A stretch of DNA of 64,000 nucleotides from NCBI GenBank assembly GCA_964471795.1, contig CAYYHM010000007.1:1221-65220 (forward strand). The letters are read 5' to 3'. Source of the stretch: an uncultured Chitinophagales bacterium. GTDB lineage: Bacteria; Bacteroidota; Bacteroidia; Chitinophagales; S012-47. The notes under the pieces are model-generated. The model was not told where the DNA came from, searched no databases, and saw nothing but the letters and a program-made list of their open reading frames with translations. Positions 1,619 to 54,929 of this stretch are shown here, one piece after another. Numbering within the stretch: position 1 is the stretch's first letter; each line of letters starts with the position of its first letter. The position numbers and the translations under genes were made by a program.

Positions 1619-1694
1619 GATGTATTCTCCTTGGTGTGGCGGTATGACTCTCGCTTCATTGAAATTAACATAAATTAACAACTCCGATGAGTTT

Positions 1695-1706
1695 GGGGGG
1701 GGGGGG
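1695..1706. repeat. G12 homopolymer tract in the divergent intergenic region
   Basis: Twelve consecutive G counted at 1695-1706. The tract lies 77 nt upstream of the helicase GTG (minus strand) and 38 nt upstream of the ATG at 1745. Confidence 0.95.
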
Positions 1707-1707
1707 A

Positions 1708-1715
1708 TATATTTG
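1708..1715 (+). promoter_or_regulatory. Candidate Bacteroidota -7 promoter box (TATATTTG = TAnnTTTG) for the lipoprotein module
   Basis: TATATTTG matches the published Bacteroides -7 consensus TAnnTTTG. It sits 29 nt upstream of the ATG at 1745 and one base after the G12 tract. A TTTG at 1692-1695 lies on the other side of the tract. Confidence 0.3.
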
Positions 1716-1744
1716 CTAGTATTCTTAATCAAAAACTATAAAAC

Positions 1745-2119
1745 ATGAAAAATTTAATGCAATTAATGGTACTATTGTTGGTAGCGGCCTCTTGTGGCAA
1801 AACCCACTTGTCTGATGTGAAAATGGATGCACACCAAAACATCAGTTCTAAACAAGATGGTGATGTTGGGGTTTTATTTCAACTTGGACTTTTTAACAAA
1901 GATCCAATGACTAATGACAGATTAGATCCTTATGATTGTAACTATTGCTTAGAATGCGTTTGTTACATTCTTGTCAATGGAAATTCTGCAAATGCATTTT
2001 CTCAGGGAGATACTATTGATGCACTAATAATTGACGGTGCAGATACAGTGCAAAGGTCTGGTATTTTAAGAGTTTGGGATGGTAACAATTCACTAAATCA
2101 TGAAGTAGAGCTATTTTGA
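1745..2119 (+). CDS. Small Cys-rich lipoprotein, unknown function
   Basis: 124-aa ORF with signal peptide and lipobox MKNLMQLMVLLLVAASC. Cys cluster DPYDCNYCLECVC. Low-GC segment (a sampled line is about 33% GC). Confidence 0.55.
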   Translation: MKNLMQLMVLLLVAASCGKTHLSDVKMDAHQNISSKQDGDVGVLFQLGLFNKDPMTNDRLDPYDCNYCLECVCYILVNGNSANAFSQGDTIDALIIDGADTVQRSGILRVWDGNNSLNHEVELF

Positions 2120-3231
2120 TCCAGATGACTCGATTTATTATCATCCTCATAACATTGGTGTTCTTATCATGTGCGAAAAATTCGTACGATAAGGACACCA
2201 AATTTTTAAAAACAGCTGAATTCCTGATAGACGAATCCGAATATGTATTCATCAACAAGCCCAGAGATGTGCAGCCAATAGGAACAAGATGGCTAGTAGT
2301 AACTGCCGAAGGGGGCTTATTGGAGTATGATGAACAATGGAATTTTACTAAAACTCTCGAACCATTTACTGACAGCATTTATCAGCATTGCATCAATCTC
2401 ATCAACACAGTTTCTCCTAATCTCATCAACATTGATTCATCATCATTGCAGTTGTTGAAGCAGGTTGGAGCGAAATGTAACGCCATGCAATTATTCTTCG
2501 ATGAAACAGATTCAACATTATACCTTCAGTTCGATGTAGTTGGTATTACTACTATGACTCATGGAGAATATGGGGAAGGAAATGCAATAGTTGGGTATCA
2601 ATTTGTTACTGAATGGAATCCGGGTGAAAAGCAGGAGTTTGTGAATAGCAAGCTCTTGCCTTATACTGATTACTTGGAGAAAAAAGGGTTAATTATGAAT
2701 GCCTCAAAGGCGTTCATTGTCAATAAGGGAGATTTGTACGTCAATTTGTTGTGCTATCCGTATCAAACAGGTTTTCCCAAAGTAGCTTCCTTTTCACTAA
2801 CAGAAACCTCTGATACCGCCATTTTCAACAAATTGTACCTCCAACCAGTTCAACCAAAAAATCTTGAAGACATGTATCCGGGTGAGTTGGTTACTGTGCA
2901 GAAATTCTTCTTATCGCCACAAGGTGAAGTTCTTTATGTTAATGGTCAGTCTGTAACCAATTTATCGTCGGGAGAAATCGTATACATAGATTCTCATTCC
3001 AATCATATTCTGTATGATGCCGGATATATGGGTAATCAGTTGGTGGGATATGTATTGGTGAAAGATGACCAGCAAAGTACAACAGATATTTTCTTGATTG
3101 ATATACAATCTGGCAAAACACGATCACTGTCAACCGAGCACGATTTGGTTGGATTTTTTGCAAATGGATTCTTCTACAACCTCGTAAAAAGAGATGAGCA
3201 AGTATTTTGCGAAGTATATACTATTAGTTAG
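2116..3231 (+). CDS. Lipoprotein, unknown function (size and pattern compatible with a beta-propeller-type Bacteroidota lipoprotein)
   Basis: 371-aa ORF with lipobox ITLVFLSCAKN. The start is TTG 2116 (overlapping the upstream stop) or ATG 2125. Low GC. No catalytic motif recognised. Confidence 0.6.
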   Translation: MIQMTRFIIILITLVFLSCAKNSYDKDTKFLKTAEFLIDESEYVFINKPRDVQPIGTRWLVVTAEGGLLEYDEQWNFTKTLEPFTDSIYQHCINLINTVSPNLINIDSSSLQLLKQVGAKCNAMQLFFDETDSTLYLQFDVVGITTMTHGEYGEGNAIVGYQFVTEWNPGEKQEFVNSKLLPYTDYLEKKGLIMNASKAFIVNKGDLYVNLLCYPYQTGFPKVASFSLTETSDTAIFNKLYLQPVQPKNLEDMYPGELVTVQKFFLSPQGEVLYVNGQSVTNLSSGEIVYIDSHSNHILYDAGYMGNQLVGYVLVKDDQQSTTDIFLIDIQSGKTRSLSTEHDLVGFFANGFFYNLVKRDEQVFCEVYTIS

Positions 3232-3679
3232 CCTGGTTTTATTGGTGTGTGGCTGCCATGCAAAAATAAGCAGAGAAGAAGTGTGTGCATCGGTATGTCA
3301 AACCATGAATACTGATCTGAGTAGGACAGTTGAACATTGGGTTTTGGTGTATAGTCCTACGGATTGCATCAATTGTTATTTGTCTCTTCAAATGCTTTTT
3401 GAGGTAGCGCCAGAGATTCCCATTCAGGAGATAACGATAGTAACTGTAGCAATGCGGGAAGCTGAAAAGAAGGCAACTATAAAGAAATTGACGTTAAATG
3501 CACCACCATCCCTGGCCTACCATTTTGTATTTGAAGATGAATTATTTGAAGGTTTTACTGAATGTCTAGGTCAATCATCCACAAATCTTGTCTATTGGAA
3601 GGAGGATTGTGCTGAATGGAAATCAACAGACTTCAAGCAGCTACACATAGATGAGATAAAAGATTGGCCACAATTGTAA
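3194..3679 (+). CDS. Lipoprotein with a thioredoxin-like CxxC (CINC) motif
   Basis: 161-aa ORF with lipobox LVLLVCGC. WVLVYSPTDCINCY resembles the thioredoxin/TlpA-fold active-site context. Overlaps the upstream ORF by 38 nt, so the start is uncertain. Confidence 0.5.
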   Translation: MSKYFAKYILLVSLVLLVCGCHAKISREEVCASVCQTMNTDLSRTVEHWVLVYSPTDCINCYLSLQMLFEVAPEIPIQEITIVTVAMREAEKKATIKKLTLNAPPSLAYHFVFEDELFEGFTECLGQSSTNLVYWKEDCAEWKSTDFKQLHIDEIKDWPQL

Positions 3680-3685
3680 GCAAGG

Positions 3686-4189
3686 CTACAACCTCGTAAA
3701 CGATTTCCGCATCCGGCGCATGCGCATCTCACAGTCGTCTGTCACCAGCTCGAAAAACAAGGTATTCCAGTCGGGGGAGAAATAGACATCATAGGTGCCG
3801 GGCTGGTCGGTGCACATCAGCTGCGAGTTGCTGAGGAGGGTAATGCGGTTGCCCTGCATGGTAAACGAGCCTTCCACAGAGGGCCAGCCTTCGGCACTGA
3901 TGGTCATGGTGCCCCTGTCGGTGATGGTGATGGTAGTTGGCCTGCGAGCCTTGGTAGTCCAGTTGCCGGCCATTTTTTCATAGCCGGGAGAGATGGCCTT
4001 GCCGGGAGAAGCGGGCAGCTGAATGGGTACTTCAGTTGATGGCGTCTGATCATTGTTGGTAGCAGCACCTACTGCACTGATGACGGCTGTAGTGTCGACA
4101 GCCGTTGCATCCGGCATCGGAGGCGGAGGCGTGCTATCCGATTGGCAGGCGGCGATATACAGTATCAATGAGAAAAGTAGGATGCGCAT
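3686..4189 (-). CDS. Lipoprotein, unknown function
   Basis: 167-aa ORF with lipobox SLILYIAACQSD followed by a Pro/Thr-rich linker. Backbone-like GC. Starts 29 nt downstream of the ligase gene on the same strand. Confidence 0.6.
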   Translation of the reverse strand: MRILLFSLILYIAACQSDSTPPPPMPDATAVDTTAVISAVGAATNNDQTPSTEVPIQLPASPGKAISPGYEKMAGNWTTKARRPTTITITDRGTMTISAEGWPSVEGSFTMQGNRITLLSNSQLMCTDQPGTYDVYFSPDWNTLFFELVTDDCEMRMRRMRKSFTRL

Positions 4190-4218
4190 GGCTCAAAATT
4201 AGGATTTCGCTCCGTGAC

Positions 4219-5802
4219 TTACAGCAACGCCTTCAAATCTTCCAGCGTATTGGCTTCTTCCATGGGCTTATCCCTGCGCCAGCGATGGATGCGGGGAAAC
4301 CGTAAGGCGATACCCGACTTATGGCGGGGCGAGGTGGCAATTCCTTCAAAGGCGATCTCGAAAACGAGCTTAGGTACCACGCTGCGTACAGGCCCGAAGC
4401 GCTCCACAGTGTGTTGCTTAACGTATCGGTCTACTTCGCGCAGCTCGGCATCGGTGAGTCCGCTATAGGCTTTGGTGAACGGCACAAGCGTATCCCCATC
4501 CCACACGGCAAAGGTGTAGTCCGTAAATAGGTTGGCCCTGCGGCCATGTCCTTGCTGCGCATAGATGAGCACGGCATCCACTGTGTAGGGATCCACTTTC
4601 CACTTCCACCAGTCGCCTTTCTTGCGGCCGGTATGGTAGGTCGAGTCGAGGTGTTTCAGCATCAAGCCCTCGCTGAGTTGTTCCCGTGCCCGACTGCGCC
4701 ATTGCAGGGCTTCCTGCCAGGATGTAAACGGCACCACCGGCGACAGATGTAATGGTAGATAATCCGGCAATGCAGCCACGAGTACCTCCAGTTGTCGCCT
4801 GCGCTCCCGGAATGGCTTTTCCCGCCAGTCCGCTCCTTCCCATTCCAGCAAATCATATAGATACACAGCCACCGGTGCCTCCTTCAGTAGTTTGGCGCCA
4901 ACCTTCTTGCGGGTGATGCGGGTTTGCAGCAGTTGAAATGGTTGTATGCTACCATCTTTTACCACCAGTATTTCCCCATCCAGCACGGTGCCATCAGGAA
5001 GTGCAGTACGCAGGATGTCCAGTTCGGGGAATCGGTCGGTGAGCAGCTCCTCACCCCGGCTCCACACGTGTATTGCTCCTTTTCGTACAATCACCTGCCC
5101 GCGAATGCCGTCCCATTTCCATTCGGCCTGCCAGTTGTCGGGCGCCCCCAGCGCCTCAGGTTCTGTCTCCAGCGCATAGGCCAGGCAGAAGGGATAGGGC
5201 CGGGAATGGTCTTCTTGCTGATCGGCTTGCCATACCAGCTCATGAAAGGTGGTATCCTGTGGGCTCCAGTGCCCCATTAGGCGATGTGCCAGCAGGTTTT
5301 CATCCAGCCCTGTGTGTTTGGCCAATGCGCGGGTCATGAGCTTTTGGGAAACGCCGATGCGAAATCCTCCGGTAATGAACTTGTTGAACACAAATCGTTC
5401 GGTAGTATCCAGTTGTTGCCAGGCGTTGGCGACGGCTGTTTTACGATCCTCGTCGGGCAGTTGGTATAGTTGGATGAGCAGCTCCATCCAGTGGGTAAGG
5501 GAGGATTCCTGAAGGATAGCAGTGGGAGGTGGCAGCAGCAGGGCGATGGTTTCTGCCAGGTCGCCGACAATATGGTAGGTGTCCTCCAGCAGCCACAAAG
5601 GTAGCCCTGCCAATTCTGCTGCCCATTCGCGCAACTGTGTGGTGGTGATGGTGCGCTTTGGTCGGCGGTGCGACAGGATGGCGATGGTCCACAGCTTGTC
5701 GCTGTCGCTGGCGGCATCGAAATAGGCTGTCAACGCATCCACCCGCACGTTGGTTTTGGTGGTGCTGTCGAGTTCTTGTATCAGTTGGGCAAAGGCTCTC
5801 AT
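4219..5802 (-). CDS. ATP-dependent DNA ligase (ligase-associated DNA damage response type)
   Basis: 527 aa. Adenylation motif EWKWDGIRGQ (KxDG). The C-terminal OB-like region ends ...ALRFPRIHRWRRDKP. There is a 4-nt overlap with the exonuclease gene. Confidence 0.9.
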   Translation of the reverse strand: MRAFAQLIQELDSTTKTNVRVDALTAYFDAASDSDKLWTIAILSHRRPKRTITTTQLREWAAELAGLPLWLLEDTYHIVGDLAETIALLLPPPTAILQESSLTHWMELLIQLYQLPDEDRKTAVANAWQQLDTTERFVFNKFITGGFRIGVSQKLMTRALAKHTGLDENLLAHRLMGHWSPQDTTFHELVWQADQQEDHSRPYPFCLAYALETEPEALGAPDNWQAEWKWDGIRGQVIVRKGAIHVWSRGEELLTDRFPELDILRTALPDGTVLDGEILVVKDGSIQPFQLLQTRITRKKVGAKLLKEAPVAVYLYDLLEWEGADWREKPFRERRRQLEVLVAALPDYLPLHLSPVVPFTSWQEALQWRSRAREQLSEGLMLKHLDSTYHTGRKKGDWWKWKVDPYTVDAVLIYAQQGHGRRANLFTDYTFAVWDGDTLVPFTKAYSGLTDAELREVDRYVKQHTVERFGPVRSVVPKLVFEIAFEGIATSPRHKSGIALRFPRIHRWRRDKPMEEANTLEDLKALL

Positions 5803-6806
5803 CCTTCCACCTCCTCTTTGCTGTCGGCTTGTTCACCCTCATAGGCAGTAGCCAGCGGGTGTGCGTCCAACCCCTGTTCCCGCAGCCATTGGGAATAGAT
5901 GTCGCTGTAGCCATGGGTCACGAGCACCTGTTCTGCGCCTGTAGCGCGGATGGCGGCATTCAGCTCCTGCCAGTCAGCATGATCGCTCATCACGAAGCCT
6001 TTGTCTACAGCCCTTCGCCGCCGTGTTCCCCGCATTTGCATCCACCCACTGGCCATGGCAGTGGCGTACGGAGTGAATCGCTTCATCCAGCTACTACCCA
6101 GTGCGGCGGGTGGGGTAATCACTATAGCGCCGTTTATTTGCTCCTTAGCCATGTCAGCAGTTACTCGGGTAACAGCAGGTAAGGGTATCTCCAGTGATTG
6201 GTTCATCTCATCTACAGCACCATGCACCAGTATGGAGCCTATGGTGGGGTCAAGGAGGGACAGTATGCGCTGTGCCTTGCCGAGGGCATACGCTGCTACC
6301 ACACTGGTAATGCCTTGTGCCTGATTGTGCCGCCACCAGTTGTTCAGGTCATCGGCTACCTCTTGCTGTGTAGGCCACCGGAAAACCGGCAGGCCAAATG
6401 TGGATTCGGTAATGAAGGTATGACAGCGCACCGGCTCAAAAGGGGTGGAAATACCATCGGAATGCAGCTTATAGTCTCCTGACACCACCCATACCTCGCC
6501 CTTGTAGGCTACCCGGATTTGTGCCGACCCGGGGATGTGACCGGCCGGGTGGAAGGAAAATTCTACGCCATTGATGGTAAATGTCTCGCCATACCGGTAG
6601 GTGGTAATATCGATCTGCCCCAGCCTCTTCTGCAGGATGGGGGCTGACAGGGGCGTGCAAGCATAGTGTTGATGCCCCCACCGGGCATGGTCACTGTGGC
6701 CGTGGGTAATGAGGGCACGGGCTACCGGCCGCCAGGGATCGATGTACACATCGGCCTGCGGACAGTAGATACCGTGCTGATTGGTGGTAAGTAGTGGCAT
6801 AGGCAA
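5799..6806 (-). CDS. Ligase-associated DNA damage response exonuclease (metallo-beta-lactamase / beta-CASP fold)
   Basis: 335 aa. MBL motif ITHGHSDHA, with conserved His/Asp further on (VTHGYSD). Translationally coupled to the ligase gene. Confidence 0.85.
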   Translation of the reverse strand: MPMPLLTTNQHGIYCPQADVYIDPWRPVARALITHGHSDHARWGHQHYACTPLSAPILQKRLGQIDITTYRYGETFTINGVEFSFHPAGHIPGSAQIRVAYKGEVWVVSGDYKLHSDGISTPFEPVRCHTFITESTFGLPVFRWPTQQEVADDLNNWWRHNQAQGITSVVAAYALGKAQRILSLLDPTIGSILVHGAVDEMNQSLEIPLPAVTRVTADMAKEQINGAIVITPPAALGSSWMKRFTPYATAMASGWMQMRGTRRRRAVDKGFVMSDHADWQELNAAIRATGAEQVLVTHGYSDIYSQWLREQGLDAHPLATAYEGEQADSKEEVEG

Positions 6807-25844: not shown

Positions 25845-25846
25845 CA

Positions 25847-39318: not shown

Positions 39319-39328
39319 TGGCTGTAGT

Positions 39329-44966: not shown

Positions 44967-45028
44967 TAAAGAGGAGAGTAGGAGCTCATTAAAAATAGTC
45001 TGCTAGAAAAGTGCTGATAGCTGTAGAC

Positions 45029-45364: not shown

Positions 45365-46390
45365 ATGAAACACCTCATCCTCACCCTATTACTTGGCTGC
45401 ACTGGCCAACTCACCTTCAGCCAAACCAATAACTGGGCTCCGGTAGGAGCGAAGTGGATGTACAATTACATCTATTGTAATACTGACCCTTACTGTGGAT
45501 ATGCCATTTTTGAATCCATTGGGGATACTACTATTCTGGGTAAAACTTGTCGGAAGGTTCGTAGAGAAGAGGTTTTACTTGACTCAAACGATACCTTTTG
45601 GGCCACAGGCTCTTCTTTTTATTCGGACTCAATTCTTTTTATTTATGAGGATAGTGGGCAAGTGAATGTGTATGACAAAGTCAACAGCGAATTCTTTACC
45701 CTGTATGATTTTAGTTTAGGCGCTGGTGACTCATTAATTATAGCTGATACATTGACCAGCAGAGGCTTTGTAGGAGCGCATTGCAATCCAGCCTGGCCCG
45801 AAAAGAATGTAAGGTTTTGTTACCCCATAGCCTATAAGATTGAAAGGGATACACAGGTGATGATCAATGGTACCAGTCATTATGCGCAAATTCCGGCTCG
45901 TGATGCTTCATATCAGGGGAAACAAAGTGGATTGGGTTTCGGGGAAAATTTTTTACTTGTTGAAGGTATTGGTGCTACTGGTCCCAACTTATTTGGATAC
46001 GATCCTAATAGTCTATTATTATATCCTATGGCTCCAGGCCGCCTTTTATGCTATACCATTAAAGATTCTGTGGTATGGAATGATCCTGCAGTCGATTGTC
46101 TGAATTTAACTACCGTACCTACAATAGAGCAAAAATCAGCTATTGTGGAAGTGTTTCCCAATCCCAACAACGGCACTTTCCAGTTGGTGCTTGAAGAAGA
46201 GGTACTACAAAAGGCGCAGGGCAAAATAGGTTATAAAGTATTGGATAGCACCGGGCGTACAGTCCATACGGGGAATATTTCCTCTATAGAAACCACTGTT
46301 AGTTTACCGGCATTGCCGGCAGGGGTGTATTTATTGCACTTTCCAAGTACAGCCTACAATACTACACCAATTATTATTCAATACCCATAA
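45365..46390 (+). CDS. T9SS cargo protein, unknown function
   Basis: 341 aa. Signal peptide MKHLILTLLLGCTGQLTFSQ. CTD VFPNPNNGTFQLVLEEE...LPAGVYLLHFPSTAYNTTPIIIQYP. Low GC (a sampled line is about 40%). Confidence 0.75.
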   Translation: MKHLILTLLLGCTGQLTFSQTNNWAPVGAKWMYNYIYCNTDPYCGYAIFESIGDTTILGKTCRKVRREEVLLDSNDTFWATGSSFYSDSILFIYEDSGQVNVYDKVNSEFFTLYDFSLGAGDSLIIADTLTSRGFVGAHCNPAWPEKNVRFCYPIAYKIERDTQVMINGTSHYAQIPARDASYQGKQSGLGFGENFLLVEGIGATGPNLFGYDPNSLLLYPMAPGRLLCYTIKDSVVWNDPAVDCLNLTTVPTIEQKSAIVEVFPNPNNGTFQLVLEEEVLQKAQGKIGYKVLDSTGRTVHTGNISSIETTVSLPALPAGVYLLHFPSTAYNTTPIIIQYP

Positions 46391-46402
46391 GAAACACATT
46401 TC

Positions 46403-47995
46403 ATGAAAAACCTTTCTTATATCACCTGGCTCCTACTATCCCTTCAGATCATTCTAAGTGCGCAGGTGCAGGCCCAGCCACATCTTACCAAAACTGATTT
46501 CTTCGGTGGAAGCGGCTATGATGGGATATTTACAGGCTATCCTACTGCCGAGGGATGGCTATTGGTAGCTACCACTACCAGCACTGATGGTACGGTTTCC
46601 TGCACCAATACCAGTGTACGAGGGCATACCTGGGTGATACAATTAGACACTGCTGATCAGGTGGTATGGCAGCAGTGCTACCCACAAAATGAGGGTACAG
46701 TGCCTTGGTTTATTGAGCCTTATGGTGATGGTACGTACATTATTTTTGGCGAAAGCCGGGAAGATACCACCCTATTGCCCTGCCACAAAGGCTCAGATGA
46801 CCTCTGGCTGCTGCATATCGATAGCCTGGGGCAGCAAATCAGCCAACATTGCTTTGGGGGTAGTGCTATTGAAAAGGTATACGACTTCAGGAAAACTAGT
46901 CAAGGTACATACATAGTGGCTGCCCGAAGTCATAGTTCTGATGGTGATTTATCCCCATACTACGCGTCTACCTTTGTAGAAGATGCCTGGGTGTTTGAGT
47001 TGGACAGCTTCTTCAATATCACCTGGTCCTTGCAATGGGGCGGTACTTCCTACGACCAGGCCAATGCCATAGCCGAACATCCACACGGTGGCTATGTGGT
47101 GGCAGCTAATAGCAACTCCAGTGATGGCGATGTATCCACCAATACCGGGAAATCAGACCCCTGGCTATTGCGGTTAGACACAGCCGGGCAGGTAGTATGG
47201 CAAAAGCACTATGGCAAGCCTACCCATGAAGACAATCTGCACCTGCTCGTTGACAGTGCCGGTTATAGCTACCTGGCCATGGAGTCCGATCCGATACAAG
47301 GGGTGAAGGGCGGAGCCGATATCCGGCTAATGAAAATAGACACACAAGGCAATGTAGTATATGATACCTACGTAGGCGGCAACTGGGAGGAGCGTATTGA
47401 TGACTTTAAGTGGCTCGAAGGTAATCTGTTGATTGCAGGGGGTAGTAATTCTACCGGGGATGGTGTACCCGGAAATTATGGTGGACAGGATATATGGTTG
47501 GCCGTTGTTGATACCCAATTGCAGGTGTTACGATCAAATCATTATGGGGGGAGTTCCTCAGACAGAGTTTACAGTATACAAATACAGGAGAACAGAGTTA
47601 AATCATTCGGGTTTACGAAATCGGTTGATTATGATTTTTCAAGTAATCCTTTCAATATTGGACCCAGTGGCAAATGGGTAGGTATATTTTGCGAATGGAT
47701 TTCTTACCCGGTCGGTATTCCCATACCAGATAAGCAAGAATCTATTGGCGTACAGCTATACCCCAATCCCAGTAACGGCACATTCCAATTGGTGCTTGAT
47801 GAAGAGGTACTACAAAAGGCTCACGGGAAAGTAGACTATCAAGTATTGGATAGTACTGGTCGTACTGTCCATACTGGGAATATTTCCTCTATAGTAACCT
47901 CTGTTAATTTACCCGCATTGCCGGCAGGGGTGTATTTATTGGACTTTCCAAGGACAGCTTACCATGCTATACCAATTCTTATTCAATACCCATAA
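46403..47995 (+). CDS. T9SS cargo protein with ~55-60-aa beta-propeller-like repeats
   Basis: 530 aa with a signal peptide. Repeats of the type GG(S/T)xxDxxxxI...GGYxxA..S.SSDGDVS...G..D.WLL.LD..GQVVW. The CTD is 62/79 identical (my count) to that of the upstream gene. Confidence 0.75.
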   Translation: MKNLSYITWLLLSLQIILSAQVQAQPHLTKTDFFGGSGYDGIFTGYPTAEGWLLVATTTSTDGTVSCTNTSVRGHTWVIQLDTADQVVWQQCYPQNEGTVPWFIEPYGDGTYIIFGESREDTTLLPCHKGSDDLWLLHIDSLGQQISQHCFGGSAIEKVYDFRKTSQGTYIVAARSHSSDGDLSPYYASTFVEDAWVFELDSFFNITWSLQWGGTSYDQANAIAEHPHGGYVVAANSNSSDGDVSTNTGKSDPWLLRLDTAGQVVWQKHYGKPTHEDNLHLLVDSAGYSYLAMESDPIQGVKGGADIRLMKIDTQGNVVYDTYVGGNWEERIDDFKWLEGNLLIAGGSNSTGDGVPGNYGGQDIWLAVVDTQLQVLRSNHYGGSSSDRVYSIQIQENRVKSFGFTKSVDYDFSSNPFNIGPSGKWVGIFCEWISYPVGIPIPDKQESIGVQLYPNPSNGTFQLVLDEEVLQKAHGKVDYQVLDSTGRTVHTGNISSIVTSVNLPALPAGVYLLDFPRTAYHAIPILIQYP

Positions 47996-48005
47996 ATCAC
48001 CAATT

Positions 48006-51000
48006 ATGCAAAACGTACTGCTTACCATTTCAGTTATCATGGCTGTTGCCCTGAGCACAACAGCGCAAACCTGGCACACGCTGATGGCCAACCCGGAATT
48101 AGACTATGATTCTGTTGCATCCATCATGAATACCTATTTCACAGAACCACCGGACTCCAGCATACTGGAAGCTCCGGAAAGTGGTGGCACCGGCCCTGCC
48201 AGTTGGGAGAGTGAGGCCACCCATTACTCCCGGTGGCAATGGTTCTGGGAAACTCGTTTAGGCGTTGTAGATAGTCAACCCAGGCAGTTTCAGCCGCTTG
48301 CCGAGGCCATTTTTGACTGGGTAGACAATTATCCAACAATGAATTGTGCTTCGGATATTTTTCAAGCAGATTGGCAATGTATCGGTCCTTTTGAACATGA
48401 GCACCAGCGAATGGGCAGGATAGAAGCCATCTGGGTGGACCCTGCTGACCAAAATAACATCCTGGCGGCCAGCAACAGCGGAGGCCTTTGGCGATACAAT
48501 GCGGCTGGGCCGGTAAACTGGGAATGTATCACCGATGGATCTGGCATACCTGCTTTAGGTATCAACAAGATACTGGTAGATCAATCAGGTGCTGAAGATC
48601 ACATCATTTGCGGTACCGGTTTCAATGCGCAGGGAGCCAATTATTACGGGGTGGGTATAATAGAGTCCACCGATGGTGGAGATACCTGGAGTATAGATGA
48701 AGGATTTAGGGACGTGCTGGTTAGCACTGGTATCGGAAAGCGATTCCGGCAATATTATCCTACCGTAGAAGATGTGGAGTTTTTGCCTGGAAGTAATCAA
48801 CTAATAGCCACCTGTAGAAATCACATTCTCATCAAAGATGCCAATGGCAATTGGAGCCGTGTGTATAGTCATTATGATATAGATGGTAATGGAGATACCA
48901 ATCGATTAGTGGTAAGGTTGCATGATATTGAAATAGTACCTGGTACCAATGGCCAAACTATTTTGATTGGGAGTGCGGATGAGAATGGAAATGGTGGAGG
49001 AGCGGTCTTATTAAAATCAACTAATGGAGGCCAAAATTGGAATCGCGTAATCCTGCCTTCCAGTGCAAGTGAGATGTTGGGTTCTAACAGGGATTTCGAG
49101 TTTCAGTATGGGACAACACCGCCAACACCGCCATATTTTGTTAATTGGTTTGAAGACCCAAATTGGGGGACATCAGGTTGGGAGCACTGGCAGTCGTCAA
49201 CTATCGGAGGCAATAGGGTAGCTTCAATCGCTCCCTTGAATAATGGGAACAATGCAAAACTCATTCGAGGATTTAATAAAGCCATCTTACATGGAGTAGA
49301 GTATTTGCTGGAGTTCGACTATGATATTCCTGTTGATTGCCGATTGGAAATATATTTAACCAAGAAAGACAACCAAGGCCATTATACCCATACCTATTAT
49401 GATGAGTTGGCTTCTGGAAATGGCAGAGCAGAGATTGTCCTTAAGCATTTTGATGGCAATGTCAATACGGGTTATTACTTCTTTAGTCTTCAGCCTGTTT
49501 ATGATGGCTCCCAGGCACAATCGCCAGATAATGTGTGGGTTGATAATTTTAGTCTCAAGTCCAATGTGGCTCAACTGATTTCCATTGAAACACCGGGATC
49601 AGAAAACTGGTTTGTTGCACAGTCCATGGTTGGCTCAGGAAGTGGCATTATAGAATACAATGATTTCGGAAATGGTTATAAGTGGGATGTGATTGCCACT
49701 AATGTTGGAATAGGAAAATTTGCAAGGTATGCGGTAAACACCAGCAATCCCGATATCATGTACCTCGGGAATGTTTATATAACTAAATCAACTAATCGAG
49801 GAAACAACTTTACATCTATCCACCCATCTGGGAATAAATCCGTTCATGTAGATATACGACATTTATCTGTTTATGCAGCTTCGACTGATGGTTTATCGGA
49901 CAAAATATACATGGGTACAGATGGTGGCGTTTCTTATTCGGCACATGGAGGTGCTGTAAACCAATGGATAGATATGAATGGCAACGGATTGGCCATTAGC
50001 CAGTTTTACGGATTTGCCAACCATGAACAAGATGCCAGTAAGATTCTTGGAGGCACCCAAGATAACGGCACTGTCATTACCTATGACAAACTGGAGTGGG
50101 ACATTAAGACAGAGAGTGACGCTTATGAAGGGGTAATGAAACGAAGCGATAATTCCATTTGGTTTATGGAAAAAGGGCCGGGGTGGGACAGGTCTAACCT
50201 TTATAGAACAGACCTTCCAGGTGAAAGAGATCCACCTAACATAAGTAATGAAAATATTCCAGATTTTAGCCTTAACGTAAAGCCTATCGATTACCATTTA
50301 CAACTACAAGACAAATTATTTATTGGTTATCACCGATTTTTTAGGAGCAATGACGATGCTGAAACACCTGCTGGATGGGTAGAATTGAATGCGGATAAAT
50401 CTAAGCCCCTCAAAACCTTTGCACTCGACACCTACAATCCCGATGCGGATAAGTATTATGTGGGATATAAAAGGAGGAGTGATAATGGTGTACTATTGCT
50501 TGGTGAAGGATTTCCAAATCCTGATTGGTCCAATGGAGATAGGTCTTCAGGCTTACCGACTAAATGGTACCCAATTACCGGCATCGCAACAGATCCTTAC
50601 AACTTTGACCGGGTGTGGGTGTCATTTGGAGATATTTCATACAATGAGCATCCGGACGGGGGATTTCGTGGCCGGGTGTCCTACTCTGCCACAGGAGGTG
50701 CGAATGGGGATTGGACGGATATGTCGCAAGGATTGCCACAGTTCCCGGTGAATAAGATCATTTATCTTGAAAATAGCGATGACATACTTTTTGCTGCAAC
50801 TGATGTAGGGGTTTATATATGGAATAAAAATGCAGGGACAAATGGAATGTGGGAGTGTTTTAACCAGGGTATGCCTACTGCCTTGATTACCGACCTCGAA
50901 GTTAATTATTGTACTGGCACATTGCGTGCGGCTACGTATGGAAGAGGAATTTGGGAAACACCTTTACCCAATTTAGATCTGCAAGTCAAAGAGGTAACTA

Positions 51001-53309
51001 CGAACACAGTTTGGAATTTAAAAATGAATTTCCCAACTGATTTAATCATCAAATCCGGCCAAACCCTCACCCTTGGCAGCGATGCCGTACTGAACATGGC
51101 CCCGGGCACCAGGATCATAGTAGAGCGTGGTGGAAAATTGATTGTGGATGGCGCTACCCTTACCAATACCTGTGGCAATTTCTGGACCGGCATCGAAGTA
51201 CACGGCCATGCAGACCAGCCGCACTACAGCCATTATGCTACACAAATAGCCCTGGGCACCTACCCGGTAGATAGCAATGACCACGGGGTGGTGGTAATTA
51301 AAAATGGGGGTACCATAGAAAATGCCCATGTTGGCATTACCAATGTAAAGAAGAATAATGGCGCTATATTGACCCATAGTGGAGGCATCATCATAGCCGA
51401 GGAGGCCAACTTTATCAACTGTTGGAAGGGCGTGGAGATGTACCAGTTTCGCCCCGATAAAGCGGGTTCAGCCTCCAACCCCAAACAAAACATCAGCCGC
51501 TTTACCAACTGCACCTTCAAAACCACCAGCGATTACTTTCATGATGACTATCCACCCACCGATTTTGTCACGCTGTGGGACGTACATGATGTACAATTTT
51601 CCGGCTGTACATTTGAAAATGAAGCCTATGCCGACTTTTTAGTGGACGATAGAGGCAATGGTATCACCTCCATTGATGCCACCTACCAACTGAAAGGCCG
51701 CTGCACAGCTTTTGATACAGACGGCAAGTGTACCACCTATCAGCGCAACAGCTTCTCTCACCTCACCGAGGGTATCAGCTATACGGCTTCTCTGGGGCAG
51801 CCCTTTATCACCTGGATAGACCGCACTGACTTTACCGGCAACGCCATAGGTGTACAGGCCAAAGGTACCCACCACGACTTCCGCGTAACACGCAGCCACT
51901 TTACCTTACCGACCAGTGCCAGTGTGAACAACCGCAGGTGTGCAGGGATAGAGTTACTGGGCAGCACCGGCTTTACAGTGGAAGACAACACCTTTGAGCA
52001 GTCGGCTACTTTTACCGGAAGTGAAAGTAGTGCGGGTATAAGAATAGGTGTATCGGGCCAAAAGGCCAACCGCATCTACCGCAATACCTTTACCAACATC
52101 ACCAACGGTATCTGGGCCGATGACGACAACCGTGGGCTACAGATCAAATGCAACACCTTTACCACTGGCACCATCCACAAGCACGATGTGATTGTATGTG
52201 GCAACTCGACACGCGATGGAATTGCTAAATTACAAGGAGAGTGCAGGCAAGATATATCTGACTTCGACTACTTCTCCGCCCCTGCGGGTAACCTCTTCAG
52301 CCAAAGCCAGGGGGTACAATACAGTGATTGGTACAATGCCACTGCCTTGCCTACCACGAAATACCACCATCATTTTACCAGCACAAGTAATGATCCGCTA
52401 GAGTTGGTTTACAAAAACAATGCTACAAACGAAGAGTGTGTAGCGGAATATGACGCAACTAAGGCCTGTCCGCTAAATCCCATCCTGGATGACGGTAAAG
52501 GCCCCAACCAGCAGATTAGTGAGCTGCGCACCCGCATGGCCGACATCCACACCGAACTGGATGGAGCTCCGGGAGGCGATTATGAAAAATACCTGAACAC
52601 CGAGCGGGAGCTGGCCTTATCCGAAGGTTACAAGCTATACCTGACGCACGACAGCCTGTATGGCCTTGACAGTGCGCGCTACTGGTTGGAGCAAGATACC
52701 AGTGACCTGGCCAAAGCCTTGTTGGTGGCACTCTATGTGCAAGAGGGAGACTATACCCTGGCAGACCAGGCGCTCGACTCCATTACCGACCTGGCCTACA
52801 CGGAAAACACCGGCAAGAGCTATCTGGATAAGCTGATCACCATTAAAAGCACCGATTGGCACTATAGCAGTACGGACAGCACCACCTTAGCGCAGGTAGC
52901 CGCCCTGGCCAACGATAGTACCACCTACGGTTGGCAAGCTTACGGTATGCTGGCGAGTGCCGGCTATCTGGAGTACCCGGTACCGGAGCCGCCTTGTGGC
53001 CCCGGTGCAGTGATCGGCTCCGGCAAGCGGGCTATGGACACGCTGACCGAAGCACCTGCCGCAAAAACTTTCCTGACCTTGCAGCCTAACCCCACCAGTG
53101 GAGGTGTTACCCTTACCTGGGATAGTGAAGGTGAACAAATAGACCTGCGGGTACTGACCCCTCAGGGCAAGGTAGTGTACCAGGCGCAAAGCTGGCCGGG
53201 TAGCGGTACGAGGCAAATAGCCACCCCTTGGCCGTCCGGTATGTACTTCATTGTACTCACCGATGATCAGGGCAAACAGCACAGCACCTCCTTACTGCTC
53301 ACCAAATGA
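48006..53309 (+). CDS. Large T9SS cargo protein: BNR/Asp-box propeller-like N-terminal part plus a probable right-handed beta-helix region
   Basis: Start at ATG 48006 (signal MQNVLLTISVIMAVALSTTAQT). Asp-box-like STDGGDTW, STNGGQNW and TDGGVSYS. Later NxxGI/NTF-type repeats (TFENEAY.., TFEQSAT.., TFTNITNGIWADDDNRGLQIKCNTF) suggest a parallel beta-helix. CTD FLTLQPNPTSGGVTLTW...SGMYFIVLTDDQGKQHSTSLLLTK. Confidence 0.8.
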   Translation: MQNVLLTISVIMAVALSTTAQTWHTLMANPELDYDSVASIMNTYFTEPPDSSILEAPESGGTGPASWESEATHYSRWQWFWETRLGVVDSQPRQFQPLAEAIFDWVDNYPTMNCASDIFQADWQCIGPFEHEHQRMGRIEAIWVDPADQNNILAASNSGGLWRYNAAGPVNWECITDGSGIPALGINKILVDQSGAEDHIICGTGFNAQGANYYGVGIIESTDGGDTWSIDEGFRDVLVSTGIGKRFRQYYPTVEDVEFLPGSNQLIATCRNHILIKDANGNWSRVYSHYDIDGNGDTNRLVVRLHDIEIVPGTNGQTILIGSADENGNGGGAVLLKSTNGGQNWNRVILPSSASEMLGSNRDFEFQYGTTPPTPPYFVNWFEDPNWGTSGWEHWQSSTIGGNRVASIAPLNNGNNAKLIRGFNKAILHGVEYLLEFDYDIPVDCRLEIYLTKKDNQGHYTHTYYDELASGNGRAEIVLKHFDGNVNTGYYFFSLQPVYDGSQAQSPDNVWVDNFSLKSNVAQLISIETPGSENWFVAQSMVGSGSGIIEYNDFGNGYKWDVIATNVGIGKFARYAVNTSNPDIMYLGNVYITKSTNRGNNFTSIHPSGNKSVHVDIRHLSVYAASTDGLSDKIYMGTDGGVSYSAHGGAVNQWIDMNGNGLAISQFYGFANHEQDASKILGGTQDNGTVITYDKLEWDIKTESDAYEGVMKRSDNSIWFMEKGPGWDRSNLYRTDLPGERDPPNISNENIPDFSLNVKPIDYHLQLQDKLFIGYHRFFRSNDDAETPAGWVELNADKSKPLKTFALDTYNPDADKYYVGYKRRSDNGVLLLGEGFPNPDWSNGDRSSGLPTKWYPITGIATDPYNFDRVWVSFGDISYNEHPDGGFRGRVSYSATGGANGDWTDMSQGLPQFPVNKIIYLENSDDILFAATDVGVYIWNKNAGTNGMWECFNQGMPTALITDLEVNYCTGTLRAATYGRGIWETPLPNLDLQVKEVTTNTVWNLKMNFPTDLIIKSGQTLTLGSDAVLNMAPGTRIIVERGGKLIVDGATLTNTCGNFWTGIEVHGHADQPHYSHYATQIALGTYPVDSNDHGVVVIKNGGTIENAHVGITNVKKNNGAILTHSGGIIIAEEANFINCWKGVEMYQFRPDKAGSASNPKQNISRFTNCTFKTTSDYFHDDYPPTDFVTLWDVHDVQFSGCTFENEAYADFLVDDRGNGITSIDATYQLKGRCTAFDTDGKCTTYQRNSFSHLTEGISYTASLGQPFITWIDRTDFTGNAIGVQAKGTHHDFRVTRSHFTLPTSASVNNRRCAGIELLGSTGFTVEDNTFEQSATFTGSESSAGIRIGVSGQKANRIYRNTFTNITNGIWADDDNRGLQIKCNTFTTGTIHKHDVIVCGNSTRDGIAKLQGECRQDISDFDYFSAPAGNLFSQSQGVQYSDWYNATALPTTKYHHHFTSTSNDPLELVYKNNATNEECVAEYDATKACPLNPILDDGKGPNQQISELRTRMADIHTELDGAPGGDYEKYLNTERELALSEGYKLYLTHDSLYGLDSARYWLEQDTSDLAKALLVALYVQEGDYTLADQALDSITDLAYTENTGKSYLDKLITIKSTDWHYSSTDSTTLAQVAALANDSTTYGWQAYGMLASAGYLEYPVPEPPCGPGAVIGSGKRAMDTLTEAPAAKTFLTLQPNPTSGGVTLTWDSEGEQIDLRVLTPQGKVVYQAQSWPGSGTRQIATPWPSGMYFIVLTDDQGKQHSTSLLLTK

Positions 53310-54814
53310 GGATAGTAATGCGGATTATTGGATTACTCATGTTCTACCTGGGGCTGGGCATCACACTCCATGCCCAGCAACCCTTTGCCTATCCCATAGA
53401 CTTTGAAGATAATGTGGAGACAGCAGGGCAAATGACCATATATAATGATACAGTCTATTTTTTATCAAAGGGTTGGTCGCAAACGGATACACTGCGAAGG
53501 CGAAAAATGGTTCTACAGGCCTGTGATTTGGAGGGGCAGGTGATTTTTCAGCAAAAGCTATTTGGAGACGATATGCATAGCTATCAACCCGCCCCCTTCA
53601 ATGAACTACCGGTAACCAATGACGGTCACTTTCTGGTAGTAGGTATGCGAAATGATTTGATCAGCCCCACCCATCAGGCGGACATCTTTGTGGCGAAGGT
53701 GACCCGGCAGGGCGATACGGTGTGGACGAAGACCTACCCGCGGTACAACACCAGCGAGTGGCCCTTTGCTATTGGGTATAGCCCCAATGGGATGCTCATT
53801 ATCACCGGTGCCCGTAACAAACCGGGTGGTGACCTGGATGGTATGATTGTAGCCATTGATACCGCTACAGGTCAGTTTTTATGGGAGAATTATATTGACT
53901 ATGGAGAGCATGATGGATTTTCCGATTTGGAATTTGATTCTACAGCCATGGAAATCATTGTTAGTGGAGGTACACTGGCCTCTGGTATGAGTGGTTTTAA
54001 AGGTATGTTATGGTATTTTGATTATAGTGGGAAGTTTTTGCGTTCTAAGATGCTTTCCGGTCTGGAAGCTGGAGGTATTTCTCATTTGGCAAAGGCATTT
54101 GGAGGTCATGTTTCATTACAAAAAACACTCACCAATACTTTCGAGTACTATCCCCATCGCATCAGAAAATATAACCAAAACTGGAATGTACAATGGACCA
54201 CTATGATAGATGACCTGGGTGACGATTCAGAAATTGCTGAGGTATTTACCCTACCAGATGGGTCGATATGGATGGTAGGCTGGGCGTACACCAGTACCCA
54301 GCAGTATGCACAGGCGCTGAAGCTGGACAGTACCGGTACCATTGTGTGGCACAGGCGCTACTTCAGCAAGGATGTCACCGGCAGTAGTCCGCTCATCAAC
54401 TACGCCAACTACTACCCCGGCCCCAATGCCGTGTATGCAGTGGGTACCGTTACCGGTCCCGGGCAGAACAACAGCGACTCCTGGCTGGTGCGCTTCGATA
54501 GCATGGGCTGCCTGGTCCCCGGCTGCGATACGCTTTACACCGGCACGGCTCCCATGCCTTTCCAACCTGCCACCCTCCACATCTACCCCAACCCCGGCAC
54601 CACACAACTCACCATCGACCTGCCACCGGATTGGATCACCACCGCCACCCACCTACAGCTCCGCAACCTGCGCGGACAGATCGTCCACCACCAAGCCACA
54701 CAAGGCAACCTCCGTCAAACCGTAGCTACAGGTCATCTGCCTGCCGGCCTCTACCTCGTAGAGGTATGGAGTTCGGATGGTATGCTGGGCAGGGAGAAGT
54801 GGGTGAAATTGTGA
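53306..54814 (+). CDS. T9SS cargo protein with beta-propeller-like repeats
   Basis: 502 aa. The ATGA start/stop overlap with the upstream gene suggests translational coupling. Repeats are of the type D.FVAKVTRQGDTVWTKTY, DGMIVAIDTATGQFLWENY and DSWLVRFDSMGCLV. CTD LHIYPNPGTTQLTIDL...LPAGLYLVEVWSSDG. Confidence 0.75.
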   Translation: MRIVMRIIGLLMFYLGLGITLHAQQPFAYPIDFEDNVETAGQMTIYNDTVYFLSKGWSQTDTLRRRKMVLQACDLEGQVIFQQKLFGDDMHSYQPAPFNELPVTNDGHFLVVGMRNDLISPTHQADIFVAKVTRQGDTVWTKTYPRYNTSEWPFAIGYSPNGMLIITGARNKPGGDLDGMIVAIDTATGQFLWENYIDYGEHDGFSDLEFDSTAMEIIVSGGTLASGMSGFKGMLWYFDYSGKFLRSKMLSGLEAGGISHLAKAFGGHVSLQKTLTNTFEYYPHRIRKYNQNWNVQWTTMIDDLGDDSEIAEVFTLPDGSIWMVGWAYTSTQQYAQALKLDSTGTIVWHRRYFSKDVTGSSPLINYANYYPGPNAVYAVGTVTGPGQNNSDSWLVRFDSMGCLVPGCDTLYTGTAPMPFQPATLHIYPNPGTTQLTIDLPPDWITTATHLQLRNLRGQIVHHQATQGNLRQTVATGHLPAGLYLVEVWSSDGMLGREKWVKL

Positions 54815-54850
54815 GACTTTCAAAAATTGTTGATTTATAGGGTTATAAGT

Positions 54851-54929
54851 CCTGACAGGTTTTCGAAACCTGTCAGGTCTGACGATATCCAAAATAAACC
54901 TCCAAGGTTTCAAAAACCTTGGAGGTTTG
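54851..54929. repeat. 79-bp double-hairpin element, copy 2
   Basis: CCTGACAGGTTTTCGAAACCTGTCAGG...AAACCTCCAAGGTTTCAAAAACCTTGGAGGTTT. See copy 1. Starts 36 nt after the stop of the last T9SS gene. Confidence 0.95.

Follow-up and report, generated by a model that had tools for sequence, protein, structure and literature searches.

The 64-kb stretch of DNA analysed here (the window) comes from a Saprospiraceae-like bacterium and contains four low-GC blocks, at about 1.6-3.7, 21.8-25.8, 36.3-39.3 and 45.1-54.8 kb, which vary among strains and to which we refer as islands 1 to 4 (Table 1). GC troughs reach 0.38-0.47 within the islands, compared with 0.50-0.59 in the rest of the window, and the GC3 of island genes is 0.26-0.57 (0.56-0.59 in the 3' third of island 4, which is neighbour-like from about 50.9 kb onwards and makes this island a mosaic) against 0.52-0.73 in 22 neighbouring genes. 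Among these neighbours are a secreted 4,900-aa CTD protein (GC3 0.63) and two lipoproteins (0.62 and 0.69). Since the deficit of the islands lies at synonymous, third codon positions, amino-acid composition alone does not explain it.

The islands hold 13 ORFs (three, two, four and four, respectively), and every one of the 13 proteins starts with an N-terminal hydrophobic signal or a lipobox. By a crude hydropathy rule, all 13 island genes but only 9 of the 22 neighbours score positive (Fisher p=6e-4). Six island proteins gave Por_Secre_tail (T9SS CTD) matches in a Pfam profile search, three of them above the Pfam threshold (genes at 45365, 46403 and 53306) and three below it (21899, 24435 and 47964; E 2e-3 to 3e-5), with two island proteins also passing the TIGR04183 cut-off; combining an N-terminal signal peptide with a C-terminal Por_Secre_tail, all six have the make-up of T9SS cargo with a type A CTD. 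Searches of the 13 proteins against Pfam, PHROGs and NCBIfam gave no match to an integrase, transposase, relaxase or phage family, the non-coding gaps within the islands do not exceed 260 nt, and there is no tRNA gene in the window and no plasmid match for islands 1-3. We rejected an origin of the island proteins as duplicated paralogues, as the similarity found between them was CTD-to-CTD only. Several island genes contain simple-sequence tracts of the kind typical of contingency loci.

Table 1. Islands, flanking repeats and adjoining host genes, by position in the window.
Feature	Position	Strand	Remarks
Host ligase-associated DEXH helicase, 5' part	2..1618	-	TIGR04121, E 1.5e-231; junction alignment
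Island 1	1597..3685	+	2,089-nt low-GC insert; GC3 0.26-0.39; no direct repeat
Island 1, three lipoprotein genes	1745-2119, 2125-3231, 3194-3679
Host operon upstream of island 1	3686..6806	-	167-aa lipoprotein, ATP-dependent ligase, MBL-fold exonuclease; TIGR04120, TIGR04122
Island 2 left repeat, 83 nt	21738..21820	+	last 29 nt of the 4,900-aa CTD gene plus terminator
Island 2	21821..25846	+	two T9SS cargo genes; GC3 0.39-0.41; Pfam matches
Island 2, DUF7948 protein	21899/22052-24451
Island 2, BNR-repeat protein	24435/24474-25844
Island 2 right repeat, 83 nt	25847..25929	+	identical to the single copy of relative L102
Island 3 distal repeat	36236..36342	-	fumC 3'-end pseudo-fragment, in-frame stops; 25-mer core 36258-36282
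Island 3	36343..39308	+	four small secreted/lipoprotein genes
Island 3, genes	36575-37090, 37166-37819, 38055-38495, 38509-39204
Island 3 proximal repeat	39309..39415	-	3' end of intact fumC; 25-mer core 39331-39355
Island 4 left repeat, 82 nt	45025..45106	+	two perfect hairpins, 126 nt past the stop of the methylmalonyl-CoA mutase large subunit
Island 4	45107..54847	+	four T9SS cargo genes
Island 4, genes	45365-46390, 46403-47995, 47964/48006-53309, 53306-54814
Island 4 right repeat, 82 nt	54848..54929	+	last 43 nt identical to the left copy

Occupied and empty sites

Empty sites were read from contigs of relatives that are 85-97% identical to the window, including one 33.9-kb contig from a relative that lacks both island 1 and island 2. 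A 95.7% relative (L084) that diverges inside a hydrolase gene was left out, as it may be chimeric, and a reference-genome scan based on fumC turned up no relative above 80% identity, and synteny was not conserved in those that it did find.

Within the ligase-associated DNA-repair operon, island 1 consists of 2,089 nt in place of 61 nt that the relatives have. On one side it adjoins the stop codon of the 167-aa lipoprotein and on the other it supplies, from its left end, the first ~7 codons and the GTG start of the helicase. In the relatives L095-L098 the lipoprotein and helicase genes lie 39 nt apart and the operon is contiguous with the helicase, in a canonical four-gene cluster with an intact helicase start. 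For the 368-aa protein of this island, a set of 1.84 billion representatives yielded only four clusters of homologues.

Island 2 is a precise 4,109-bp insertion, with the 83-nt repeats as its exact boundaries. The two repeat copies are 96% identical, a pairing of which none is expected by chance, and a single 83-mer occupies the empty site in three assemblies (L093, L094 and L102), one of them an NCBI MAG. The right copy, which matches the single copy of L102 throughout, is the native allele. The left, gene-proximal copy is a hybrid: its nt 1-34 are the same as in the right copy, and nt 35-83 hold three non-native alleles (3/49 differences, against 3/334 in adjacent sequence; p=0.03). A 32-nt stretch of the 83-mer had no match in IMG/VR, and a scan of JGI metagenomes with the BNR-repeat protein brought up distant relatives only, none above 29% identity.

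At island 3, the 107-nt repeats are 72% identical and share an exact 25-mer (again, no such pair is expected by chance). The flank of the distal repeat beyond the core is native fumC downstream sequence, and the terminator now serving fumC comes from the island. The core has 0/25 differences and the arm 16/51 (p=8e-4), which is a crossover signature rather than uniform decay. An independent contig (L086) covers the island and both junctions at 99.97% identity. In another relative (L100) the order is lipocalin, terminator and an intact-looking fumC end, with a flank that matches the flank of the remnant in the window, and island 3 is probably absent from this relative, judging from a contig that stops 8 nt beyond the core. 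Two of the four island 3 genes are preceded by a DUF805b-type leader. The fumC 25-mer had no match in IMG/VR.

The repeats of island 4 are intergenic and 93% identical over 82 nt, once more with none expected by chance. An island-4-like cluster lies between unrelated flanks in another genome (L091), with counterparts of genes 1 and 4 at 95.5% and 87.6% identity and an S8 peptidase in place of the middle of the island; there, a remnant of the right repeat's first hairpin follows the homologous last gene. Because these hairpins are also found 3' of the island's last gene in that genome, they are not simply the terminator of the host. The adjoining methyltransferase yielded no empty site for island 4: it is a rare accessory gene, and its closest homologue (66%) belongs to a glycan cluster that is unrelated. 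A reading of the hairpins as a dispersed REP-like family had weak support, with hairpin 1 in only three IMG/VR contigs and absent from 1.6 Mb of other Bacteroidota loci. A further low-GC CTD gene, in the relative L095, had no repeats on its flanks.

The islands, with their atypical synonymous composition and a presence/absence polymorphism with sharp boundaries, are thus genuine, recent, horizontally acquired islets of surface and secreted proteins. The first-pass annotation had described four compositionally distinct, recombinase-free segments with 13 genes, all with a signal or lipobox and six with a CTD, and GC3, ORFs and profile searches confirm this; the low GC is synonymous, and amino-acid usage, which it had named as a refuting explanation, does not account for it. 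Its suggestion of acquisition is supported by the comparison with relatives, in which islands 1 and 2 are missing at exact boundaries. It had also placed direct repeats around three segments and tied them to the insertion boundaries; both points hold, with repeats of 82-107 nt at islands 2, 3 and 4 and the exact ends of island 2 given by its 83-mers. Of the host material that it saw in the repeats, those of island 2 contain the last 29 nt of the gene plus its terminator and those of island 3 the fumC 3' end; the hairpins of island 4 are not simply a host terminator. The proposed position just downstream of host terminators does not hold for island 1, which lies inside an operon and has no repeat.

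About 30% of the 64-kb stretch is recently acquired DNA devoted wholly to the cell surface (T9SS cargo and lipoproteins), in islets that are small, recombinase-free and located at gene ends, one of which rewired a DNA-repair operon on insertion. This offers a boundary-resolved view of the turnover of the surface repertoire, the interface with phages, predators and substrates, in an uncultured lineage of Bacteroidota.

Proposed origin and competing explanations

On balance we favour a scenario in which the islands arrived by at least two routes, the repeat-flanked ones, which are CIME-like, by a reciprocal crossover at a short core and island 1 illegitimately. Islands 2 and 3, which share the same anatomy, and probably island 4, would have integrated by a reciprocal (Campbell-type) crossover between a short sequence on the incoming DNA and a matching 3' end or terminator stretch of a host gene, within cores that are identical over 34, 25 and 43 nt, respectively. 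The crossover would leave attL/attR-like direct repeats on either side of the island, and the host gene would gain a replacement 3' end and/or terminator, with the native one displaced to the far end of the island. Its catalyst might be a recombinase from elsewhere in the genome or outside it, or else host RecA using the short homology, and strains could later have passed on or lost such islets through ordinary homologous recombination, either in the flanks or from repeat to repeat. The foreign composition, the absence from relatives, the exact boundaries and the hybrid gene-proximal repeat are observations, from which we infer the reciprocal crossover, the enzyme and the donor. Counting against this scenario, the three repeat pairs have no core in common, and a 14/16-nt motif across the stop codon is found in islands 2 and 3 only (p about 0.005). 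Island 1, with junctions at a stop codon and inside the first codons of the helicase and with no repeats, is instead an illegitimate insertion or replacement. The homology-driven single crossover at a 3' end or terminator that the first-pass annotation had put forward fits the SNPs of island 2 and the structure of island 3, where an identical core adjoins a diverged arm, but not island 1, which also speaks against its one common route for all segments; nor would the route be undescribed, as CIMEs (PMC7563491) and mobile-element-free hotspots (PMC5635113) provide precedents. As a whole, that interpretation is partly supported.

Homology-facilitated illegitimate recombination (HFIR) would produce a similar layout, and is a possible though unlikely origin. 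DNA from a relative would be anchored in the giant CTD gene or in fumC, its far end would be joined illegitimately a few dozen nt before the stop codon, and the native 3' end and terminator would be displaced downstream. No recombinase is needed, the distal repeat of island 2 is native while the proximal one carries foreign alleles, as this mechanism would have it, and island 1 shows that illegitimate joining happens in the lineage. There is also precedent in the 'C-terminal displacement' of Rhs genes and in T6SS orphan-immunity arrays, where foreign DNA likewise arrives 3' of a conserved gene and leaves the resident 3' end behind as an orphan (PMC5361080). However, what is displaced here amounts to just 29-76 nt and a terminator, and neither a donor tract nor a microhomology junction was detected in the short sequences available: the 1.4 kb of the giant gene beside the repeat is its least divergent part, at 0-5 differences per 200 nt, with no donor-type divergence, and no microhomology is visible at the right junction of island 2. 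Furthermore, at island 3, the arm of the relative L100 has 1/10 mismatches to the intact fumC arm and at least 3/10 to the remnant arm, the opposite of what HFIR predicts.

A further, rather improbable reading is a dedicated cassette-exchange system of Saprospiraceae. Surface-protein cassettes with promoters of their own would each contain a module of two hairpins, one at the stop codon and one a terminator, that doubles as recombination site and as the replacement 3' end of the target gene. A structure- or sequence-specific recombinase encoded elsewhere would move them from one gene end to another, or they would travel as circles that RecA generates between the direct repeats. Each repeat of the three pairs folds into two hairpins. 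This architecture, together with the motif GGTGG-N-GAA-R-TTGT-R-A that the cores of islands 2 and 3 share, would be the signature of such a system.

It is very unlikely that the islands are old, vertically inherited genes that relatives lost by deletion between the repeats, with a low GC reflecting relaxed selection on rarely expressed surface genes. Recombination between the 83-nt repeats would yield exactly the empty site that is seen, the island 3 genes are present in strains that are 97% identical, and a conserved gene nearby has a leader with 92% identity to those of island 3. Yet the gap between a GC3 of 0.26-0.41 and the 0.63 of a co-located secreted gene is too large for relaxed selection, the island proteins are near-orphans, island 1 has no repeats, and the relatives show the canonical four-gene cluster with an intact helicase start. 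The repeats themselves would still require an insertion event.

Only marginally more remote is an assembly artefact, in which islands 2 and 4 would be separate low-GC molecules, or those of another organism, threaded into the contig through the 82-83 nt of shared sequence. Logan unitigs (k=31) run exactly from repeat to repeat at island 2 (21742-25876) and island 4 (9,804 nt), so that the assembly graph alone is compatible either with an integrated island or with a circle plus an empty chromosome, and one contig (L085) begins inside the right repeat. Against this, the SNPs between the repeat copies follow the pattern of an integrated, recombinant state, the independent contig across island 3 contains both junctions, and island 1 has no repeat at which a mis-join could occur. 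Standard metagenome assemblers use large k-mers and reads longer than 34 and 43 nt, the lengths of the identical cores of islands 2 and 4.

Integron integrases and HUH transposases act on hairpins, but transposition or an integron-type cassette insertion, with the repeats as long target-site duplications or attC-like sites served by a dedicated enzyme that the element itself encodes, is hardly credible despite the two hairpins per repeat. There is no transposase or intI in the islands or the 64-kb window, and terminal inverted repeats were not reported. At 82-107 nt, the duplications greatly exceed known target-site duplications, and their copies differ, where fresh duplications would be identical. 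The genes within an island abut or overlap, and no site is repeated from one to the next.

Relation to known elements

Many hotspots of horizontal transfer contain no mobile elements and owe their turnover to homologous recombination (PMC5635113). The islands resemble them in being small accessory blocks between conserved genes with contents that are swapped, as in the middle of island 4 compared with L091, but a double crossover in the flanks makes no direct repeats and leaves the hybrid left repeat of island 2 unaccounted for. The icd locus offers another parallel: phage 21 and e14 integrate into the 3' end of this protein-coding gene, bring a substitute for that end with them and encode their integrase beside the att site. 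The duplicated gene 3' end, the identical core with a diverged arm and an intact host gene with an element-supplied end are all found here as well, unlike the integrase, which the islands do not encode. With no PHROG matches in the islands, they are neither prophages nor phage satellites.

Integron cassettes, CALINs, Xer-dependent IMEX and pdif modules are moved by a recombinase in trans, and like them the islands are recombinase-free units of cargo with short structured sites at their ends. They differ in having no attC or dif-like consensus, with sites that are specific to each island and derived from the target gene. The islands do not classify as integron arrays or CALINs, with repeats at island ends only that differ between islands and with no intI, nor as transposons or insertion sequences, lacking a transposase and reported terminal inverted repeats and having flanking repeats that are long and non-identical.

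The closest counterparts are the CIMEs of streptococci, which measure 1.2-13 kb, occupy the 3' ends of fda, rpsI, rpmG or tRNA genes, are by definition decay products of ICEs or IMEs, and usually lie in tandem with one (PMC7563491). With no recombinase in cis, the elements described here are CIME-like, that is, att-flanked cargo without mobility genes: they are strain-variable islets of nothing but cargo, lacking integrase, relaxase and conjugation genes and set between att-type direct repeats at a protein-coding gene's 3' end. The att-like repeats at a target gene 3' end are a feature of islands 2 and 3, whereas those of island 4 are intergenic and island 1 has none; the lack of recombination, conjugation and mobilization genes applies to 13/13 proteins. 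The decay of an ICE or IME that the definition of CIMEs includes is not borne out, since the islands contain no remnant of one (no pseudogene remnants and, for islands 1-3, no plasmid similarity). The islands also differ from CIMEs in having no partner element and no integrase within the 64 kb, in belonging to another phylum, and in carrying secreted proteins exclusively. If the repeat-flanked islets are mobilised in trans, the CIME concept would extend to Bacteroidota, and the fumC 25-mer and the 83-mer would be candidate att sites with which to find the cognate recombinase. Finally, 'MicroCIMEs' of 130-220 bp resemble the 299-nt fumC-end units that we observed in another sequence (L078).

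The analysis confirms the first-pass observation with two corrections, on where island 1 lies and on the uneven make-up of island 4, and partly supports its interpretation. The islands are genuine and were acquired recently; all but island 1, which has no repeat, are bounded by repeats, in keeping with single-crossover capture. They class as recombinase-less, CIME-like genomic islets (CIME, cis-mobilizable element), formed neither by a single mechanism nor by one that is clearly undescribed.

Composition and gene content

The islands appear as four troughs in the GC profile (about 1.6-3.7, 21.8-25.9, 36.3-39.3 and 45.1-51 kb), at 0.38-0.47 versus 0.50-0.59 elsewhere. The four compositionally distinct segments of the first-pass annotation are therefore recovered, but island 4 is not uniform: GC at third codon positions (GC3) is 0.34-0.50 in the 5' two-thirds of its 1,781-aa gene and 0.56-0.59 in the 3' third of that gene and in the last gene. 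GC3 is 0.26-0.57 in island genes versus 0.52-0.73 in 22 neighbors, and secreted neighbors have host values (giant CTD protein, 0.63; 167-aa lipoprotein, 0.69; lipocalin, 0.62), so that amino-acid composition, the alternative raised beforehand, is not the cause of the low GC.

All 13 island ORFs (3, 2, 4 and 4 in islands 1 to 4) begin with a hydrophobic N-terminal signal, as had been claimed, and many have a lipobox cysteine; by a crude hydropathy rule, the count is 13/13 versus 9/22 for neighbors (Fisher p=6e-4). Six island proteins match the T9SS C-terminal sorting domain (CTD), the number originally given, although three of these matches are below the Pfam threshold. Searches of Pfam, PHROGs and NCBIfam gave no recombinase, transposase, relaxase or phage match among the island proteins, again as first stated, and a mobility gene would not fit into the short non-coding gaps. 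No tRNA gene was found in the 64-kb window, and islands 1-3 had no plasmid matches. The 368-aa protein of island 1 has four homologous clusters among 1.84 billion, and relatives of an island 2 protein in JGI metagenomes are all at most 29% identical.

The genes around the islands are ordinary chromosomal ones: a ligase-associated DNA-damage cluster, the 4,900-aa FG-GAP/CTD protein (the giant gene), an alpha/beta hydrolase, polyprenyl synthase, efflux components, TadA, SOD, Blc lipocalin, fumC (no more than 80% identity to Saprospiraceae MAGs), methylmalonyl-CoA mutase and MeaB. Two more are putative aminoacyl-tRNA synthetases, assigned from position and size only.

Empty sites and junctions

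Exact-sequence look-ups found the source strain in a 67.7 kb NCBI MAG contig and in Logan assemblies; relatives' variants were taken from 90%-identity clusters of flanking genes. The proposed presence/absence comparison favored acquisition, with sharp boundaries: a 33.9-kb Logan contig (SRR19514071; 85-97% identical to the window, varying by segment) carries hydrolase, giant gene, exonuclease, ligase, 166-aa lipoprotein and helicase in that order, and lacks both island 1 and island 2.

Direct repeats bound islands 2, 3 and 4 and coincide with composition breaks, and two of them (giant gene, fumC) include the host gene's last codons, as the first-pass annotation had it. At the empty site of island 2, hydrolase and giant gene are convergent, separated by 52 nt, with a single 83-mer (relatives' contigs L093 and L094, and NCBI MAG contig L102, GCA_964620505.1), which makes island 2 a precise 4,109-bp insertion of the island plus one repeat copy. 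The right copy is identical to the single copy of L102; it starts 2 nt after the last island gene terminates, in another reading frame. The left copy has three differences, all within nt 35-83 (3/49 versus 3/334 in adjacent sequence, p=0.03), and there is no divergence step in the last 1.4 kb of the giant gene.

The two island 3 copies differ at 0 of 25 core positions and 16 of 51 arm columns (p=8e-4), which is unlike uniform decay. The core takes in the final eight codons of fumC plus the initial base of the stop, and in the distal copy the fumC 3' end survives as a pseudo-fragment with in-frame stops. A probable empty site is seen in L100, a short contig from a relative (~87% identity) that reads lipocalin, terminator, 21 nt and the fumC 3' end with its TAA stop, ending 8 nt beyond the core; its flank matches that of the window's fumC remnant, and its arm has 1/10 mismatches to intact fumC versus at least 3/10 to the remnant. 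An independent Logan contig (99.97% identity) covers island 3 and both junctions, and the first two island genes also occur in strains 97-98% identical.

Differences between the island 4 copies are confined to the first 39 nt, the last 43 being identical. The relatives' contigs yielded no empty site for island 4. In L091, a contig with completely different flanks, gene 1 (95.5%) and the last gene (87.6%) enclose an S8 peptidase in place of the second gene and most of the third. Downstream of the last gene, L091 keeps part of the first hairpin, indicating that the hairpin travels with island 4; the cluster is modular and mobile. A shared SRA series suggests that L091 and the other relatives may belong to one population, a point on which flank GC3 is ambiguous.

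Island 1 has no flanking repeat. In relatives, 39 nt separate the lipoprotein stop from the helicase start; the window has lost this spacer together with ~22 nt from the 5' end of the helicase gene, 61 nt in all, and has 2,089 nt (1597-3685) in their place. On the right, the insert meets the lipoprotein gene at its stop codon (TAA to TAG); on the left, it provides the helicase with a GTG start and ~7 new codons. Island 1 is thus an illegitimate insertion/replacement within the cluster TIGR04122-TIGR04120-(lipoprotein)-TIGR04121, and the claim that every island lies just downstream of a host terminator fails at this operon.

Routes of acquisition

The hybrid gene-proximal repeats are as expected from a reciprocal crossover, which would have joined the host site and a similar sequence on incoming DNA inside their longest identical stretch. 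For island 2, the left copy is native through nt 34 and carries foreign alleles thereafter, with a native distal copy; for island 3, a native arm, identical core and foreign terminator lie proximally, and a diverged fumC-like arm, core and native flank distally. Each element provides its host gene with a new end or terminator, as is classical for integrative elements targeting gene 3' ends. For islands 2 and 4, k=31 Logan unitigs extend from repeat to repeat, so support for the integrated state comes from the NCBI assembly together with the recombinant pattern of SNPs.

The earlier suggestion of single-crossover capture therefore fits the repeat-bounded islands, but a common route does not hold, since plain illegitimate insertion is also at work (island 1). 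Together with a relative's repeat-less CTD gene, island 1 makes the theme a class of outcomes reached by more than one route. The main rival, homology-facilitated illegitimate recombination with 3'-end displacement (PMC5361080), is disfavored by the short sequences compared, which show no donor tract and in which the intact fumC arm is the more native-like one. Under single-crossover capture, the enzyme would be either a recombinase in trans or RecA acting on 25-43 nt of identity. We give a trans-recombinase or structure-specific model low probability; it is kept alive by a motif common to the cores of islands 2 and 3 across the stop codon (GGTGG-N-GAA-R-TTGT-R-A; 14/16 matches, ~0.005 chance expectation), by the two-hairpin fold of all three repeats (hairpins 40-48 nt apart) and by L078, a Chitinophagaceae MAG contig in which three copies of the fumC 3' end, in units of 299 nt, recall microCIMEs.

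With no recombinase encoded in cis, the closest described category is that of CIMEs, att-flanked cargo islets that measure 1.2-13 kb, sit at the 3' end of fda, rpsI or rpmG, lack an integrase and are thought to be abundant (PMC7563491); the route is thus not clearly the undescribed one that had been suggested as possible. After formation, islets could spread or vanish via ordinary homologous recombination, the proposed explanation for many HGT hotspots without mobile elements (PMC5635113).

Repeats and accessory features

Repeats and other features of the window and comparison contigs (window coordinates unless a contig is named)
Feature	Coordinates	Description
Island 2 repeat		83-mer, 96% identity; giant gene's last 29 nt (QQFKVVKL-stop) and terminator
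Island 3 repeat		107 nt, 72% identity, exact 25-mer
Island 4 repeat		82 nt, 93% identity; two perfect hairpins, 126 nt past mutase stop
12-G run	1695-1706	39 nt upstream of island 1 first-gene ATG, between it and divergent helicase start
Giant gene	7064-21766	single 4,900-aa ORF; FG-GAP repeats, RGI-lyase-like domain, CTD; host-like composition
(ACCTT)x4	21924-21960	5' end of island 2 first gene; ATG at 21924 out of frame
21-nt tandem array	26824-26904	upstream of hydrolase
Intergenic elements	27042-27139, 28700-28739, 32191-32257, 44920-44975, 57865-57972	CTTGAAC-like heptamer tandem repeats and GGCAGGCAGGC/GCCTGCCTGCC palindrome
138-nt unit, three in tandem	28222-28663	polyprenyl synthase/efflux adaptor gap; ~154 nt in L102
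Leader copies	34906-35001, 36484-36578, 37923-38058	~130-nt promoter/leader
DUF805b motif (Rfam)	36523-36556, 38003-38036	35.6 bits (equal to gathering score), 31.6 bits
Mutase subunits	41613-44899
CTD-coding 3' ends, island 4 genes 1 and 2	46157-46390, 47762-47995	88% identical over 234 nt
Island 4 gene 3	47964-53309	compositional mosaic; C-terminal part common to L091 S8 peptidase
MeaB	57912-58970	usual mutase partner
AGACCTGACAGGTTTTGAAAACCTGTCAGGTCT hairpin matches	L081 2905, L083 772, L082 2867	contexts all unlike window
fumC-end units	L078 11346-12065	last ~85 nt of fumC repeated 2.5 times, 299-nt tandem units, right after gene
T9SS CTD genes	L078 12961-18415	two, downstream of fumC-end units
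Low-GC CTD gene	L095 14601-16385, L097 4762-6486	GC3 0.42; tail to tail, 3 nt past helicase stop
Hydrolase region	L084 867-3819	95.7% identical

The giant gene is kept at 95-97% in relatives, and its uneven divergence (0-19 differences per 200 nt) suggests internal recombination. The conserved CTD-coding ends in island 4 suggest recombination handles for functional-domain swaps. Mutase and MeaB are 13 kb apart, with island 4, a methyltransferase, PnuC and an AAA_28 kinase-like gene between them; the methyltransferase is rare (best homologue 66%, in a glycan-biosynthesis cluster), and the entire 45-57.9 kb interval may be accessory. Two IMG/VR contigs carry the island 4 hairpin with an identical stem and one changed loop base, and a third has a variant of it. 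Judging by the L078 arrangement, recombination or integration may recur at the 3' end of fumC in Bacteroidota.

The CTD gene of L095 and L097 (variants of 594 and 574 aa), which no repeats flank in L095, lies before a PdeM-like phosphoesterase that belongs to the ligase-associated cluster. Inside the hydrolase gene (window 26066), the ENA metagenome contig L084 changes abruptly to a fused ORF plus unrelated genes (DUF5606); the contig is either chimeric or spans the breakpoint of a rearrangement.

The heptamer/palindrome elements recur between host genes and resemble an interspersed repeat family specific to this genome. The DUF805b-bearing leader, which precedes two unrelated lipoprotein genes of island 3 and, in part, the conserved neighbor gene at 34986 (92% over 38-48 nt), looks like a portable regulatory module. 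The 12-G run is possibly a slipped-strand switch or a sequencing artefact. The first gene of island 2 has no signal peptide from its annotated start (22052); losing one 5-nt unit would bring the upstream ATG in frame with a good one (MKLNTPYLTLLAILQCSSQLLAQS), making phase variation possible.
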